Source of the DNA: Octopus vulgaris
Lineage: Eukaryota
Direction of reading: 5' to 3'
NCBI GenBank assembly: GCA_951406725.2
Contig: OX597818.1
Coordinates: 66,898,001-66,962,000, forward strand
DNA: 64,000 nucleotides
Positions 3,282 to 53,458 of the stretch are shown one piece after another (position 1 is the stretch's first letter; each line of letters begins with the position of its first letter). The notes under the pieces are model-generated. The model did not search any database and was not told the DNA's origin. It was given only the letters and a program-made list of their open reading frames with translations. A program made the position numbers and the translations under genes.

Positions 3282-3500
3282 GTAGGGTATGAGAGATATT
3301 GGTGTGAAGAAGACCCAAAGGAATCAGGTAATACTGAGTAAGTGATATGAACAGACTATAGTTCAGCTCCAGGTTCGTTAATGATACGAATGAAGAATTC
3401 AACGTTGCTCACATATTAGCGAGCATATATATGAAAATTAACAGAATGAGATAAAAAATCCAAGGCTGTGAATGACTTTCAGAACATTTATAAAGAGAAT

Positions 3501-3548
3501 GTCTTACAGCTGATTCCAGGATATTTTATATGTCTTTTCATCAGAGAC
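3501..3548 (-). ncRNA. Minimal type I hammerhead-like motif (degenerate)
   Basis: Minus strand: gtct-CTGATGA-aaagacatataaaatatcct-GGAAT-CAGCT-GTA-agac. Stem I gtct/agac; GAAA segment damaged. Confidence 0.6.
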
Positions 3549-3819
3549 GGTACGAGAGAATGCTTAAGTAATTGTTATTATAGGGAAGATATGAAATACA
3601 GAGTGAAGTGGAGGAATGAAAACAAACGTGAGATACGCAAGGATATTGTATTTGCAGAATGGCGTATATATATATAAGTCTCCTGTACAATACTGCTTAA
3701 ATAATTCAACTTCAAATGCAATATCCTTGCGTATCTCACGTCTGATTTCATTCCTCCACTTCATTGTGCATTTCATATATTCTTTACAATAACGATTACT
3801 TAAACCTTTTTCTCGTACC

Positions 3820-3867
3820 GTCTCTGATTATGGGAGACGTAATAAATCCCGGAAACAGCTGTAAGAC
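3820..3867 (+). ncRNA. Minimal type I hammerhead-like motif (degenerate)
   Basis: gtct-CTGATTA-tggga..tcccg-GAAAC-AGCT-GTA-agac. Stem I gtct/agac, stem II ggga/tccc, palindromic stem III ACAGCTGT, GUA triplet; G8 mutated. Confidence 0.65.
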
Positions 3868-5139
3868 CTCTTTATAAATGCTCTGAAAACCACTCACAGC
3901 CTTGAATTTTTTTATCTCATTTTGTTAATATATATATATGTGTGTGTGTGTGTGTACATATATATATATATATATATACATATATACATATACATATGTA
4001 TATATGTCTATATATATATGCATGTGTGTGGGGGGTATCGATATACAGTGTTTACAATATTGCATATCATATATATATATATTTATATATATATATGTAT
4101 ATACACAAGTACCAATGCATATAAAGACACACACACATACACATAGTCATATATATAAATGTTTAGTAACACATTGAAGCATGGAATATATAATTCGAAC
4201 CTAATTGTGGAGATGCTGTTTGGAGTTGATTGAATAAAAGTTATCGTATACAGAATGGTGTATGAAATTATGTATAAAATCTCCAGCAGCTGTTTCTAAA
4301 ATAGCTGTGCATACGTTGCATATATCAGAGATAAAAAAATAGAAAGGGAAATGCTCCTATGATTTATTGTATATGTGTTTGACATTACAGCATTATGCAG
4401 TTCCATCTGTATTCCTTCTTTCTCTTTCTTCACTCTTTTTTTCTCTCTCTCTTTCTTTCTCTCTCTCTATATATGCATATATATAGTATTTAAAAAAATA
4501 GGAGATGGAATGTCTAATAGATTTTATTGGGTACAGCACATATTTCCACACGTGCTAAATCTCTTCAGGTAAATAGAAAGTCTCACTAGAGATATCTTGA
4601 GTCGACTTACGTACGGCTATGTGTCCATAAGATAAGACAAATTAAACCCAGACACGCTAGGATCAGCAATAAATTAAACACCTAATCCCAACAAAATCTA
4701 ATTGCTGCTCTAAACAACCACCCAAACAGAACGAGCGGAAAATATAAAAAAAAGCACGATGCCATTTGGTATAACCTAATTTGGAGCTCCAACTTTTCAT
4801 CTCAGATCGCAAAACCATTTTTCATCTCACTCGATCGCTGATTCCATCACAATGGAGTGTACAGCAAAATATTCAACCATCACAATATATAACTATCCGA
4901 TGCAAATTCGTCAAAGTTACAGCACCATATTCACAGGATGAACAACCGTAAACCGAAGATTTCTCCCGGAGACTTTAATAAGCAAATAGTGGAGAGAAAA
5001 GTAATAAACTGAGAATAAAGCATACTACTCTAACTCGGGTATTTGAGTACTCTTTTTTCCACCTTGTTTCATATTTATGTGCTCACTCTTCTATATATGT
5101 ATGTATTTGTATATATATATTTATACGTATATATTTATA

Positions 5140-5368
5140 TTTTTACATGCAAAATTTAAAGGACTGACCACTAAAAGTGGACCGTCTATATGCTAGATAT
5201 AGACGTCAAAATCGCTATTTTCCACGAAGAAAAAACTCAGCAAGACCAAAGTGTAAAAATGCTGAGTTCTTTCTTGAGAACACATTCTTCGTGGAAAATA
5301 GCAATTTTGACGTCTATATCTAGTATATAGACTAGTTGTCAGTCCTTTAAATATTGTATGTAAAAAAT
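5140..5368. mobile_element. Short foldback element between TA-rich tracts
   Basis: ttttacatgcaaaatttaaaggactgac..tagatatagacgtcaaaatcgctattttccacgaagaa is mirrored by ttcttcgtggaaaatagcaattttgacgtctatatcta..gtcagtcctttaaatattgtatgtaaaaa. A related end (accactaagtggac..tagatgtagac) occurs at ~35930. Confidence 0.7.
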
Positions 5369-6590: not shown

Positions 6591-7516
<926 letters not shown>

Positions 7517-7584
7517 ATGAAAACTCTTATTTTGCTGGGTATGATGGAAAGTGACAGACTAAGTTGACACTTGTTTTCTGGCCA

Positions 7585-26704: not shown

Positions 26705-27524
26705 AAGTTACTTGCTGCGTCTGTCTGCGTTCGTGTGCGTTTGTTACTTGATATTTGAAGTATCGTGGTACTGCGTCGGTTACGACAACGAGGGTTCCAG
26801 TTGATCTAATCAACGGAACAGCGTGCTCATTAAATTAACGTGCAAGTGGTTGAGAACTCCACAGACAGCTATACCCTTAACTTAGTTCTCGGGGAGATCC
26901 AGCGTGACACAGACTGCGACAAATCTGGCCCTTTGAAATTCATGTACAACAGAAATAGGAAAAAAGAGTGAAAGAAAGTTGTGTTGAAATATTACAGCTG
27001 GGTTCACCGCCACTCCCTGTCGGAGCCTCGTGGAGCTTTAGGTGTTATCTTTTCTCTCAGTAAACACTTACAACGCCCCGTCTGGGAATCGAAACTGCGA
27101 TCCTATGCCCATGAGTCCGCTGCCCTAAATGCTGGGCCATTGCGCCTCCACATTTGAAGAATATGTTTGTTTCAAATAATAAGTAATTCCTGTAATGTAG
27201 TGTAATGGACCCTGAAAATGTCTCAGGGGTAGGGTCCGACAGGGGGTGGCGGTGAACCCACTCTTTCTTCCTATTTCCGCTGTACATGAATTTCAAAGGG
27301 CCAGATTTGTCGCAGTCTGTGTCACACTGGATCTCCCCGAGAACTACGTTAAGGGTATACCTGTCTGTGGAGTTCTCAACCACTTGCACGTTAATTTAAT
27401 AAGCACGCTGTTCCGTTGATTAGATCAAATGGAACCCACGTTGTCGTAACCGACGGAGTACAACGATACTTCAAATATCAAGTAACAAACGCACACGAAC
27501 GCAAACAGACGCACCGAGTAACTT
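26705..27524. repeat. Local inverted duplication, ~300-bp arms
   Basis: 26705-27024 is the reverse complement of 27235-27524 apart from one ~30-bp gap, including non-SINE flank. Confidence 0.9.
26770..27150 (-). mobile_element. tRNA-derived SINE, family B (partly re-copied in inverted orientation at 27235-27460)
   Basis: Head tggaggcgcaatggcccagcatttagggcagcggactc..tttcgattcccagacggg; homologous to 18715-19051. Confidence 0.85.
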
Positions 27525-30736: not shown

Positions 30737-31026
30737 CATTATTATTGTTATTATTGTTATTATTATTATTATCATCTCAACTAACACTGGTTGAATTCCT
30801 GAAGTAGATCCAACGGAAATATCCCACGACCGTGCGTGACACCAGGCAGCCCAAAGTGTGCCAGTGCTCTATTCAACACTTCAACAGACTAATTGATATG
30901 GGTCTTTAGTGCAAAATGGTATATATATATATATATATATATAATAATAAATATTAGGGAATAAATCCAAATTTACAGGGAAAAAAAATCAGATTTAGGA
31001 TTAAATCCAATTTTATAGTAAAATAT

Positions 31027-31225
31027 TATAAAATATTATTAGAGACAAAACCACTATTTTGCAAAACAAACAAGGAAAGACTTAATCAATACATAAAATT
31101 TTAATAAATAGTCAAAAAAACCGGCACTACAATCGTTTCTTGTCTTGATCGACAATCTTCAGGTATTGATTAAGTCTTTCCTTGTTTGTTTTGCAAAATA
31201 GTGGTTTTGTCTCTAATAATATTTT

Positions 31226-31228
<3 letters not shown>
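31027..31228. mobile_element. Foldback element with perfect 66-bp inverted arms between (TA)n tracts
   Basis: 31027-31092 is the exact reverse complement of 31163-31228. A diverged single arm (attagagacaaaaccactatt) occurs at ~37029. Confidence 0.9.
31125..31165 (-). ncRNA. Minimal type I hammerhead motif with intact core
   Basis: Minus: tac-CTGAAGA-ttgtc-gatcaa-gacaa-GAAAC-GATT-GTA-gtg. Perfect 5-bp stem II, GUA triplet, 3-bp stem I. Confidence 0.75.
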
Positions 31229-31279
<51 letters not shown>

Positions 31280-35911: not shown

Positions 35912-36819
35912 CATACGTATAAGCGGGGTTACCACTAAGTGGACATCCATTATGGTAGATGTAGACCCCAAATGGTCTGACTACTAAACTAAGAACATAT
36001 ATTTCTCAAGAAAATTCAGCAAACGCCAGAATGTAAGCGAGCAACAGAAATGAAAAGACACGAAATATAAAGATTAGTCACATACCCGGTTTCATTGTTA
36101 CCGCTTACGTAATATTGCGAGCGAATACTTTGGATTATTCGTGTATTCGCTCTCATAAAACATGGATGAATGATAAGAGCTCAAATAGATATGAACCGGA
36201 AGTGACCCACCAATATAAAGGAGCCGGAACTGAGCACCAACATTGCCCTTCTCCTAAGCAAATCTGAGGCGTCTGGCGTAGGGCGCCTGTTCAACATTCC
36301 CCTGACACCCAAAGAAAAAATCATAAAATATGCAAAGCTCTGACTCAGAAGTAAGGATAATCTAAATAGTAACCTCTCACTGTATGTTACAGAACCCTTA
36401 AGCAAACAATATTGGAGCGAATAAAATGTTTGTCTCAAACATTATTATCAGGCTAAGTGCTGCACGCAAAGAAGAACTGCGACTACAAATATACAGCATG
36501 CTTTGAAACTTAACCCTCATACTTGCAACATATGCGGGCTCTTTTCAGATCATTAGCTGGACGCGAACATTACATTCGACATTACCATTATAACTTAGAA
36601 AGAAAGCGTTGTTTGACGGATCCTCATACGTAAACACTATGTGGAAATAGATGCAAAAATACAAACACACACACACACACACTTACACATACATGTATAT
36701 ACCGAATATATGTGTTTGCGTGTGTATGTATGCATTCTTTTATTTCATTATACGCTTCAGCTCTAAAGCTTTGGCCATTCAGGTGCGCAGCCAGCTTTAT
36801 ATATATATATAAATGATAG

Positions 36820-36997
36820 TTCGCTAGCCTCTAAGCCTTTTTTTACTTTCTCTCCCTGTTTATTTCTGTGTTTCTTTCTGTCGAAGAGCGTAGGCTCGAA
36901 ACGTAAAAGACTTTCTCACTTCCCGAGCGTTAAACAAATGCACCTATTTGTTGTTTACACACCCGTATTCGACTTTTGCTTTCTGTAAATTCTCACT
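36820..36997 (+). mobile_element. Short TA-flanked element with hammerhead-like motif (CUGU-core family)
   Basis: 36873-36910: tcttt-CTGTCGA-a-gagc-gtag-gctc-GAAAC-GTA-aaaga. Perfect 5-bp stem I and 4-bp stem II. Confidence 0.75.
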
Positions 36998-37109
36998 ATA
37001 TATATATATATATATTATATTATATTAAATTAGAGACAAAACCACTATTAGGCAAATCAAACAATGAAAAACTTAAGCCAGTACATAAGATTATTTAATT
37101 TATATATAT

Positions 37110-37270
37110 GTGGCTAGAATTAAAAAAACAGGAGGACAGGTAGTGTACAAAACAAATTGATGTATTAGTATAACGCTCGGTAATTGAAAACAGTTTATAA
37201 TATTTCGAGCCTACGTTCTTGCACAGTGAGGAACAAAGAAAGAAACAAGGAGAGAAAAAAATGTAAAATG
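37110..37270 (-). mobile_element. Third, more decayed copy of the CUGU-core element
   Basis: Minus: CTGTGCA-agaac-gtag-gctc-GAAAT-ATT; flanks colinear with 15840-16000. Confidence 0.65.
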
Positions 37271-37278
37271 TATGTATG

Positions 37279-37352
<74 letters not shown>

Positions 37353-37390
37353 GAAAGAAGGTTTGAAAATGCAATTTAAAAGATGTTTAT

Positions 37391-37435
37391 TTACTTTACC
37401 GGTTTCACTCTTTGGGAAAAGATTGTCAAAAGTAA
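37391..37435 (-). ncRNA. Minimal hammerhead motif with U3-A8 variant core
   Basis: Minus: ttactt-TTGACAA-tcttttcccaaagagt-GAAAC-CG-GTA-aagtaa. 6-bp stem I, palindromic stem III ACCGGT. Confidence 0.7.
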
Positions 37436-37903
37436 CATGTAGAAGTTTGGTTGCGCTAATTATTGGTTGTTGCAAATTGCTACATTACATGTATATATAC
37501 AGTCTTTGCTAACAGGGACATGTTAAGGACATAAAAAAGTACAACAGTATGATGAGAATATTTGAAAAATATTGTTTGTTTACTGACTTGTCCGTTTTAG
37601 CAGCTGCTAAAACGGACAGGTCAGTAAACAACCTCGCCACTACATTAATGTAAATCTTAATGTAAATTTTTTTGAATTCATAATATTCTGTACTGAACTT
37701 TTTTTGATAATTCCTCCTGGCAATTACCCTGAGATGTATAATATATTTGTTTTAATCTTTTCTGCCCATATTTTCAAAATTTCTCATCATACTGTTGTAC
37801 TTTTTTATGTCCTTAACATGTCCCTGTTACCAAAGACTGTATATATACATGTAATGTGGCAATGTGAAACAACCAATAATTAACGCAACCAAACTTCCAT
37901 ATG

Positions 37904-37948
37904 TTACTTTTGACAAACTGTTTCCAAAGAGTGAAACCGGTTAAGTAA
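37904..37948 (+). ncRNA. Minimal hammerhead motif with U3-A8 variant core
   Basis: ttactt-TTGACAA-actgtttccaaagagt-GAAAC-CG-GTT-aagtaa. Confidence 0.7.
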
Positions 37949-38028
37949 ATAAACATCTTTTAAATTGCATTTTCAAACCTTCTTTCGTATATAATTCCAC
38001 TCGTGCGATACCCCACAACTCAACTTTG

Positions 38029-38064
<36 letters not shown>

Positions 38065-38459
38065 AAAGAGAAAGAAAGAAAGAAAGAGAGCAAGATACAG
38101 AGACTTATAAATAAATAGATAGATTTGTTTGTACTTTATCCGAACACATACGTGTTTGAATGTGTGTGCGTGTTTGGGAGTGTGAGTGTTGTCCGTGCTC
38201 TCAGAAATCTCTAAAAGCTGCAGTCTCGGCGTCAGTTACATTTTTAAAAAATGGTTTCATAACGTACTTCCACAACTACTTATTGAAATATTCTCAATTA
38301 CTGCTTGATTCAGAGGCAATATTGCGAGTGATAATAAATTGGTTTCTCACACAAGGAAACCTATTAAATATCTAGTAGGCAATATGATATCACCACAGTC
38401 ATTAACTGTATTGTATGCTTATACCAATTCGGGACAATTTGAAGCAGTCAATAGTTCGT

Positions 38460-49103: not shown

Positions 49104-49965
49104 CGGGATCTGATCAAAATTGATTGTTGCCATAGTAACAGCACTAAAGCACTCGGAGTAAAGCTACTTGGCAAAGATTGACCTGAAACACTATTTTGTT
49201 TGCGCATTAAGTTTTAACGATCTAGCGCACTTGCACTGTTTACAGCAGTAGTTGGAAGGAAGGTATGTAGCGTGTGATTGTCGCATTGACCATGAAAATG
49301 TCAGTTCTCATTGTGATAGCTGCCAAGAGGGCTACGCAAGGTTGCAGAAAGTGCAGGAAGAGCCGTGTTTCAGCATCACACAAGTGTACGAGTTGTTCAG
49401 ACGATTCTAGGATGGCCAAAAAAATGCCGGTATTGACAAACGTTTTGAGAGACACGCAAGCACGAGAACTGTGAAAAAGAACGCAGTTATGCGTACAACT
49501 TTGAGAGAAAATCGTCGACTCCCCATCCGTGAGCTATTCGAGAATGTGCAGACTAGTTACGGTTCAGTTCATTATCACTGAAGATTTGGGTATGAGACGC
49601 GTGTCTGCCAAGTTTGTGCCCAAAATACTTTCAACTGTCCAAAAAGATCGTCGGGTTTCAGTTGTACAAGATCTCTTTGATGGGTCGAGAAAGAGGCAAA
49701 CATTTTGAAAATTGCGTAGACAAGCTTTTGGCAAAATTTGATGCAGATTCTCTGCCCAACTTTCACGGTCATGGCCAATGCGACGATCACACGCTACACA
49801 CATCCATTCCAAGAACTGCTGTAAACAGCTGAAGTGAGTTACGACGTTAAAACTACGTGCGGACGCGCAGTAGTGTTTCACGTCAATCTGTGCCAGGCGG
49901 ATTTACTCTTCAGGCTTTAGCTTCGTTGCTATAGCATCAGTCCTGTTACTTATTAATAAACCACG
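49104..49965. mobile_element. mariner derivative made of two inverted 5' ends
   Basis: Plus strand: TQVYELFRRF*DG, LRENRRLPIRELFE, TEDLGMRRVSAKFVPKILS (mariner WVP-type linker). Minus strand: MTVKVGQRICIKFCQKL (N-terminus). 49104-~49300 mirrors ~49770-49965. Confidence 0.85.
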
Positions 49966-52307: not shown

Positions 52308-53458
52308 GTCGTGTCACTTTCAGTTCAAATCAAATGATACCAATTTTGCAATCCATCGACTCGGAATCAATATGCAACACTCTATAGAGGTAATAGGTTC
52401 CATAATTATGTATACATATTTACCAATATTTTTCTCTGTAGTTTACATGAGATTTTGACACGCTTTTAAAATAATCGGGCGTAATATGCACATGTGGAAT
52501 GTGGAGTCGTTTACAAATTATGTTCACGAGTAGAATTAATGTTGACCCATTGCAATGTAATTTGCTTTAGCTTCCATGCAGATCCACCAAAAAATAGAAA
52601 ACGTGTTCCTTACAACTAATCGGACCAATTCTATAACTTACATCTTTAGCAGCATCTCGACAATGCTTACTTTCCGAGTTCAAAATTCGACGGGAAGTAA
52701 TTTAGCTTTCAACATTTCGAGATCAATAAAACACGAACGTTACAGTGAATGTCCTTTTAAATTCTGATTTGAGTCACTCTTTCTTCTAAATGTTCCGTCG
52801 TTATTCTTAAAAAGATTTGAAAATATTACCGCAATTACAAATTTTGTTTCTCAAAAATTATTAAAAGTTGTATAAAACTGTGAGTAACATGTCACATGAT
52901 TGATGGATGTGACAAACCTATATATCTATAGAGTTACCGTTGATACAGGAAATGACGTATAGGTCTCAACTTTTGGTACTGAGAGAGTAAGTCGACTGCA
53001 GCTGCCGCAATACACAAACAGTATTTCTTTTTTTGACCTCCAAATGATGAAAGCTATATAACCTCTCGGCAAATTTTGAACTCGGAAAGTAAAAATTGTC
53101 GAGATGCCGCAAATGACGTAAGTTATAGAATATGTCCGGTTAGTCGTGAGGAACTCATTTTTCTACTTCTTGGTAGATCTGCATGGACGCTAAGGCAAAT
53201 TACCTTGCAATGGGTCAACATTAATTCTAGTCGTGAACATAATGTGTAAACGATTCTGCATTCCATATATGCATATTACGCCCGTTATTTTATAAGCATA
53301 ATTACCGTGACAAAATTTCATGTAAACTACTGACAGAAAGGTTGGTGAATATTTATATATTTATAAAACCTATTACTTGTATGGTGTGTTGCTTATTGAA
53401 TCCTATTCGATAGATTGCAAAATTGGCATCATTTGATTTGAACTGAAACACGACGCCC
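52308..53458. repeat. Local inverted duplication, ~420-bp arms with ~300-bp spacer
   Basis: 52308-52730 is a diverged reverse complement of 53030-53458 (e.g. tagaattaatgttgacccattgcaa / ttgcaatgggtcaacattaattcta; tttcagttcaaatcaaatgat / atcatttgatttgaactgaaa). Confidence 0.88.

Follow-up and report, generated by a model that had tools for sequence, protein, structure and literature searches.

A foldback copy of a high-copy octopus repeat family with a U3-A8 hammerhead motif in each arm, likely a truncated and inverted Penelope-like insertion

The window analysed here, a stretch of 64,000 nucleotides of Octopus vulgaris (contig OX597818.1, positions 66,898,001 to 66,962,000), is AT-rich, with a GC content of 24-40% per 2 kb, and contains many microsatellites. 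Between two (TA)n tracts it holds a foldback element (Table 1), the arms of which, 37346-37568 and 37771-37993, are 223 nt long each and 94% complementary, with 13 mismatches. The right part of the element is a direct copy of a repeat family. The left part corresponds to the reverse complement of 37604-37631 joined to that of 37771-37993, so that about 139 nt are missing from it compared with the direct copy. The tail is carried by the right copy and not by the left one, and both outer ends lie in (TA)n. An ATG placed directly before stem I of the right-hand motif (37901-37948, + strand) opens a frame of 15 codons that ends inside stem I and in which position 17 is a synonymous third base; this frame is probably incidental. 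An open frame running through the left motif was considered as a gene and rejected, U17 making a stop codon in the right arm and Pfam finding nothing, and a sigma-70 promoter scan, which is irrelevant to a eukaryote, remained at chance level.

Table 1. Features of the foldback element and its flanks (positions in the window)
Feature	Position	Strand	Remark or basis
(TA)n microsatellite, left flank	37288..37351	.	likely insertion target; last six bases counted in the arm
Inverted copy of the element's 3' 223 nt	37346..37568	-	3' end outward, without tail
Left hammerhead motif	37435-37391	-	U3 at 37429; U3-A8 core, U10.1·U11.1, A17
Inverted copy of 37604-37631	37576..37603	-	56-nt palindrome without a loop, where the two copies meet head to head
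Direct copy of the repeat family, putative 5'-truncated pLTR	37604..38029	+	contig depth
Segment of about 211 nt, absent from some family copies	37689..37899	+	ends just upstream of stem I
Right hammerhead motif	37904-37948	+	U3 37910, A8 37915, U17 37942; sequence, descriptor scan
AATAAA straight after stem I	37948..37953	+	possible polyadenylation signal, from the sequence
36-nt tail, present at one end only	37994..38029	+	family contigs
(TA)n microsatellite, right flank	38030..38061	.	sequence

Read outward, the two arms display the same layout, namely a 6-bp stem I, UUGACAA, a 16-nt stem-loop II and GAAA-CCGG-U-(U/A). In the right motif, stem I is made of six Watson-Crick pairs (TTACTT/AAGTAA), the core is TTGACAA (37910-37916) and the other side of the core is GAAA-CCGG-T-T (37933-37942). 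The left motif has the same stem I and core and terminates with GAAA-CCGG-T-A, the palindrome ACCGGU being present there too. All the letters of a type I core are found, with the 3-8 pair as U-A, and the literal CUGAnGA consensus is absent. The A15.1-U16.1 pair is in place and position 17 is an H in both motifs (U17 on the right, A17 on the left), so that the predicted cut sites are after 37942 in the right motif and after 37397 in the left one. Helices I and II flank the core in both arms, in a fold that is not the minimum-energy one. Stem II, which the sequence-only reading of this DNA did not mention, departs from the usual form. The pair at 10.1-11.1, usually G-C, is replaced by U·U in the left arm, where 5 bp follow, and by an A-U private to the right arm, where stem II has 3 bp and then a G·G mismatch (3+2 bp); the right stem II has two private changes, at 37917 and 37920, and the left motif is close to the majority form of the family. 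There is also no unpaired base between 9 and 10.1, as the U after A9 faces the U before GAAA, most plausibly as a U·U pair.

The hammerhead-type motif is real and beyond chance. A U3-A8 descriptor gave two matches in the window, exactly these two motifs. Over 150 dinucleotide shuffles of the window minus its simple repeats (59,365 nt, both strands), this descriptor, which was written after the motif had been seen, gave a single match with a stem I of at least 4 bp and none with at least 6 bp. Viral contigs provided a natural control: their 54 matches to the bare core, all rejected as chance, include none in which stem I and stem II both reach 3 bp, and 19 of the 54 carry a G at position 17. 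The exact 25-letter pattern has no match in metagenome and viral contigs. Two matches to stem I plus core, one in a metagenome (L055) and one bacterial (L056), were likewise attributed to chance: they lack the closing strand of stem I, at most a match of 15 nt connects them to the element, and L056 falls within a coding frame. Rfam yields no match at gathering score over the whole window, and no hammerhead family appears among the 26 matches obtained for 36600-38200 at E up to 10; the weak matches, all below gathering score, are microRNA-like and fall on microsatellites and on the palindrome. It had been proposed from the letters alone that both arms carry a UUGACAA core with a 6-bp stem I and that standard searches miss such a variant. 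The descriptor and the shuffles bear out the former, and the silence of Rfam agrees with the latter.

We will now turn to the other copies of the family. Parts of the stretch occur in 20 of the 24 public runs listed, none of which holds half of its words, and none of the listed runs that carry the stretch is on record as RNA. Four runs, belonging to three studies and to three of the four organism labels listed, were aligned to 37569-38022 at a likeness of at least 80%, differences being listed from 2%; this survey reads contigs, in which rare variants drop out, and it covers relatives of at least 80% identity. The contigs aligned number 1943, 1084, 707 and 99, and the depth at 37917, next to the core, is 455,739, 267,441, 38,556 and 168. 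Among the variants listed, none of 2% or more falls within 37910-37916 or 37933-37941 in any of the four runs. As no other letter is listed at 2% or more at positions 3 and 8, UUGACAA with its U3-A8 pair is supported as the norm of the family, being the majority form in all four runs, and not as a private decay. This is what the sequence-only reading had anticipated: CUGAnGA was looked for in the other copies, and no variant at 37910 or 37915 reaches 2% among those listed in the four runs.

The family also has T at 37917 (more than 99.5%) and T at 37920 (99.9%), so that its stem II would open with U10.1·U11.1 and continue with 5 bp, as that of the left arm does. This U·U, found in more than 99% of the family depth, constitutes a second family-wide deviation. 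Position 17, for its part, is variable, with U at 45-62%, A at 30-46%, C at 8-10% and G at no more than 0.1% in the three large runs. Where the arms differ from each other, at 13 positions, six letters are private to the right arm, five are left-arm letters with no counterpart among the family variants listed and two, at 37858 and 37942, are common alleles of the family. Each arm is thus about 2-3% away from the family majority, as an ageing copy would be. The ratio of summed depth to single-contig depth, which is not itself a copy number, points to copies numbering from the thousands to the tens of thousands, as an order of magnitude only.

The way in which the family is covered is informative on its origin. 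Its depth starts at the centre of the palindrome, 37603/37604 (from bin 37601-37616 on in all four runs), and in the three large runs it rises about a hundredfold to a peak at 37953-37984, the highest values being near the 3' end. Such a rise from 5' to 3' is expected of 5'-truncated retrocopies, from which we infer the truncation. The family has two alternative 3' ends, 36-42 nt apart, both of which run into (TA)n: behind 37993 in at least 37, 29 and 27 contigs (runs X1, X3 and X5), and after the tail, near 38029, in at least 15, 15 and 4 contigs (runs X1, X3 and X7). Some internal variation was also seen. The 211-nt segment is missing from some copies, with joints from 37688 to 37900 or 37903 in three runs, one of them a DNA run. 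It starts near a GT, which an 8-nt insertion turns into GTATGT in some copies, and its 3' end in the family reads AC, not AG, so that it is intron-like only at its 5' end. The intron of Drosophila Penelope likewise ends just before stem I. Besides, some contigs in three runs return from 37863-37899 to 37664-37741, a step back of about 155-200 nt that suggests internal tandem duplications in other copies of the family.

This anatomy can be compared to the one seen in Penelope-like elements (PLE), for which the accessible parts of the literature describe an adjacent inverted and 5'-truncated copy, a tail of 30-40 bp that is often present at one end only, a bias for microsatellites and a hammerhead near the 3' end (PMC8557442). 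In an anole PLE, the tail corresponds to the span between two internal start sites of reverse transcription (PMC11167929). The element has an inverted truncated copy beside a direct one, the truncation itself following from the slope of the depth, and its 36-nt tail is within the described range and at one end only. With the EN+ PLEs taken for comparison (the Penelope/Poseidon, Neptune, Nematis and Hydra clades), it shares, as far as the portions consulted of these two papers go, the pairing of an inverted truncated and a direct copy, the one-end tail of 30-40 bp, the microsatellite or AT-rich target and the hammerhead near the 3' end. Unlike them, it has no ORF: a Pfam search for reverse transcriptase and GIY-YIG domains in 28 frames near the element, chosen from 78 listed, gave no match. 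The missing ORF is expected for a copy made of the end repeat (pLTR) only; it also means that PLE membership is deduced from anatomy and that the element cannot be assigned to a PLE clade. Within these bounds, the combination of a (TA)n bias and a hammerhead would fit a Neptune-like element better than Naiad, since the Naiads lack canonical hammerheads. We therefore consider it fairly probable that the foldback is one copy of a high-copy U3-A8 family and likely arose as a truncated-plus-inverted insertion of a PLE pLTR; in the founder RNAs, its ribozyme is predicted to have been weakly active, either in dimeric form or with the help of a protein.

The insertion could have proceeded as follows. 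A PLE protein encoded elsewhere, with reverse transcriptase and GIY-YIG activities, would nick a (TA)n tract. Synthesis of cDNA would then be primed downstream of the hammerhead, at one or the other of two internal sites, and a tail would thereby be left at one end only. If priming used the short end on one side of the target and the long end on the other, with copying from both ends of the target, the head-to-head arms would result. In a precursor containing two sense copies, helix III could form between the ACCGGU palindromes, and cleavage of the RNA would be expected after U17, A17 or C17. This cleavage would be weak or assisted by protein; according to the available part of PMC11167929, the hammerhead of the anole PLE cleaves only with the protein of the element, and insertion in vitro can do without cleavage.

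The copy in the window would not behave in that manner. Its two motifs lie on opposite strands and face away from each other, so that no cis dimer can form at the locus. Modelled across the locus, a transcript of either strand forms a single long hairpin (about -380 kcal/mol), and dimerization of the arms in cis was rejected on both grounds. Read-through transcription would bury each motif in a 223-bp hairpin, which makes this copy probably inactive. From this modelling, it probably has no ribozyme activity and could at most supply double-stranded RNA.

Whether the family as a whole has kept its ribozyme for a purpose is less clear, and the signs are mixed. All five motif alleles that reach 2% in the three large runs keep the fold (p about 0.007 when transitions and transversions are given separate weights), against a background in which 35 of the 135 possible substitutions are compatible with it. 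These alleles are a change in loop II, a U·G turned into U-A at 37929, a U-A turned into U·G at 37947, and A17 and C17. When five more alleles, for which the small run alone gives 2% or more, are added, 7 of 10 are tolerated and three break the fold (p about 0.025); the test is post hoc in both cases, having been designed after the data had been seen. The near absence of G17 can be set beside the report, in the part consulted, that G17 impairs minimal hammerheads (PMC3884650). The ACCGGU self-duplex that would form helix III is worth -8.3 kcal/mol and no variant is listed at 37936-37941; a palindromic helix III region of this kind suits dimers, as is the case for the minimal hammerheads of PLEs (PMC4209133, accessible part). 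On the other side, the invariance of the core is not significant (none of 11 core sites polymorphic versus 19 of 184 others, p 0.31), nor is that of core and palindrome together (none of 15 sites, p 0.20). The catalytic monomer folds come to -1.3 and -2.7 kcal/mol, compared with -5.2 and -6.1 for the minimum-energy folds, the z-scores of folding are about 0, and the best dimer fold keeps the ACCGG duplex and replaces stems I and II by an alternative hairpin. The suggestion that the double change is functional was hence met halfway: the common variants do keep the fold, but the core is not significantly invariant and the catalytic fold is not the minimum-energy one.

Self-cleavage is put forward here as a prediction. 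Two departures from the consensus have been fixed at once, the cleavage base has been swapped between U, A and C, and the helices have been kept, which could mean that a detuned but still active ribozyme was selected during retrotransposition. We hold this as a tentative idea only, one that we doubt somewhat more than we believe, and it concerns a family of thousands of copies common to at least three organism labels. If true, it would be direct evolutionary evidence that the hammerheads of PLEs matter to the element and do not simply ride along.

The same family could, on the contrary, carry a dead relic, with U3-A8 and U10.1·U11.1 fixed through the amplification of a founder and not through selected cleavage. 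The core invariance lies within background and the AU-rich stems are weak beside a more stable alternative fold, as such a relic would have it. Moreover, in the parts seen of the relevant papers, insertion of the anole PLE in vitro is unaffected by hammerhead mutants (PMC11167929) and high copy numbers are attained by PLE clades that lack canonical hammerheads (PMC8557442). However, the paired changes of the core preserve the 3-8 Watson-Crick pair, and the subfamily-level changes leave the pairing intact and conform to the NUH rule (5 of 5 variants, or 7 of 10), which together make this explanation rather unlikely in our eyes, although it is the most serious of the alternatives.

Other explanations bear on the nature of the element itself. 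A MITE with TA target sites, whose terminal repeats would by accident hold a captured hammerhead-like stretch, could be evoked by the long terminal inverted arms, by the lack of an ORF, by the TA at both ends, which lie inside (TA)n runs, and by several other foldbacks within the window. Yet the ends are asymmetric and the one-sided tail is family sequence, the depth climbs steeply toward one end, and the spacer belongs to the family too, in a single orientation, with a truncation junction that is palindromic. The symmetric and fixed ends with terminal inverted repeats that characterize a MITE or a Tc1-mariner derivative are not found; this origin is very improbable. Least probable of all is that the element is a piece of a non-LTR retrozyme, in which short repeat units arranged in tandem give rise to circular RNA by means of their type I hammerheads: the 6-bp stem I and the short palindromic helix III are those of canonical animal type I motifs, some contigs do go back as tandem units would and a pLTR origin of retrozymes has been proposed (bioRxiv 10.64898/2026.07.22.740005, in its accessible part), but self-comparison reveals no tandem units in the window, the go-back joints listed leave before the hammerhead, so that the repeated part lacks it, and defined 3' ends with a tail fit a target-primed insertion. 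As far as the accessible text of PMC7229834 goes, the element has in common with the animal non-LTR retrozymes that it is a non-coding repeat with a type I hammerhead and a low GC content, whereas the units of retrozymes follow one another head to tail in tandem and have canonical loop contacts, and here a head-to-head copy with a tail is found.

The truncated and inverted PLE insertion that we prefer has a close precedent. In the Cercyon PLE of Schistosoma mansoni, the U3-A8 variant accounts for about 1,300 matches (Cervera and de la Peña 2014; PMC4209133), and in the accessible portion of the same work dual PLE motifs lie 100-700 bp apart on opposite strands, minimal motifs have a low activity as dimers, and the typical PLE hammerhead has an extra base after A9 and a G10.1-C11.1 pair. 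On this partial view of the source, the octopus family has in common with the Cercyon PLEs the type I topology, U3-A8 as a family trait, a palindromic 15.2-16.2 region, mostly truncated copies and opposite-strand pairs. It differs from them by its 6-bp stem I, its longer palindrome ACCGGU, the lack of an extra base after A9, the U·U that opens stem II, the lack of a linked PLE ORF and a different host group. In natural ribozymes, U3-A8 covariation has been reported in several cases and a U10.1-U11.1 mismatch is tolerated (Perreault et al. 2011; PMC3088659). There, going by the main text, as the supplementary figures may show both together, the two deviations are separate rare variants, whereas here they form the majority state of a high-copy repeat.

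The novelty is accordingly limited, as U3-A8 hammerheads in PLEs, opposite-strand pairs and U10.1·U11.1 have all been published. In the literature searched, from which most subscription papers were absent, nothing was found on this repeat family or on both deviations fixed together, and the portions consulted of PMC13282606, PMC6962438, PMC7151607 and PMC2920678 hold nothing on the U3-A8 variant; the U·U opening of stem II beside U3-A8 is the only twist that we could not find in print. What the locus adds is a large hammerhead family that is invisible to the descriptors, the variant core itself not being new. Searches built on CUGAnGA and on a paired 10.1-11.1 would thus undercount the ribozymes of this genome. 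In the parts available of the papers on PLEs, hammerheads are unneeded for insertion in vitro (PMC11167929) and absent from the Naiads (PMC8557442). With its many subfamilies and two fixed core deviations, the family lends itself to a natural test for selection on cleavage.

The window contains further repeats. A fragment of a non-LTR retrotransposon C-terminus lies at 7146-7526 (- strand), where the match to zf-RVT is weak (E 0.009) and does not attain the Pfam cut-off. Five further foldbacks, with arms that are 74-95% complementary, are located at 3424-3940, 5140-5366, 26705-27524, 49122-49942 and 52318-53448, and a relaxed pattern detects no clear hammerhead in them. A small foldback at 31023-31248, related to 36997-37099, adjoins (TA)n and shows a decayed CUGAAGA...GAAA motif at 31162 (- strand); it possibly represents a third hammerhead-bearing family. 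A second and older family bears a decayed minimal hammerhead of the C3-G8 type at 36878 (+ strand) and 15964 (- strand), with a diverged copy at 37143-37257 (- strand). Its core is CUGUCGA or CUGUGGA, with a 4-bp stem II and GAAACG, its 3' ends run into (TA)n, and two of its copies face each other right beside the element.
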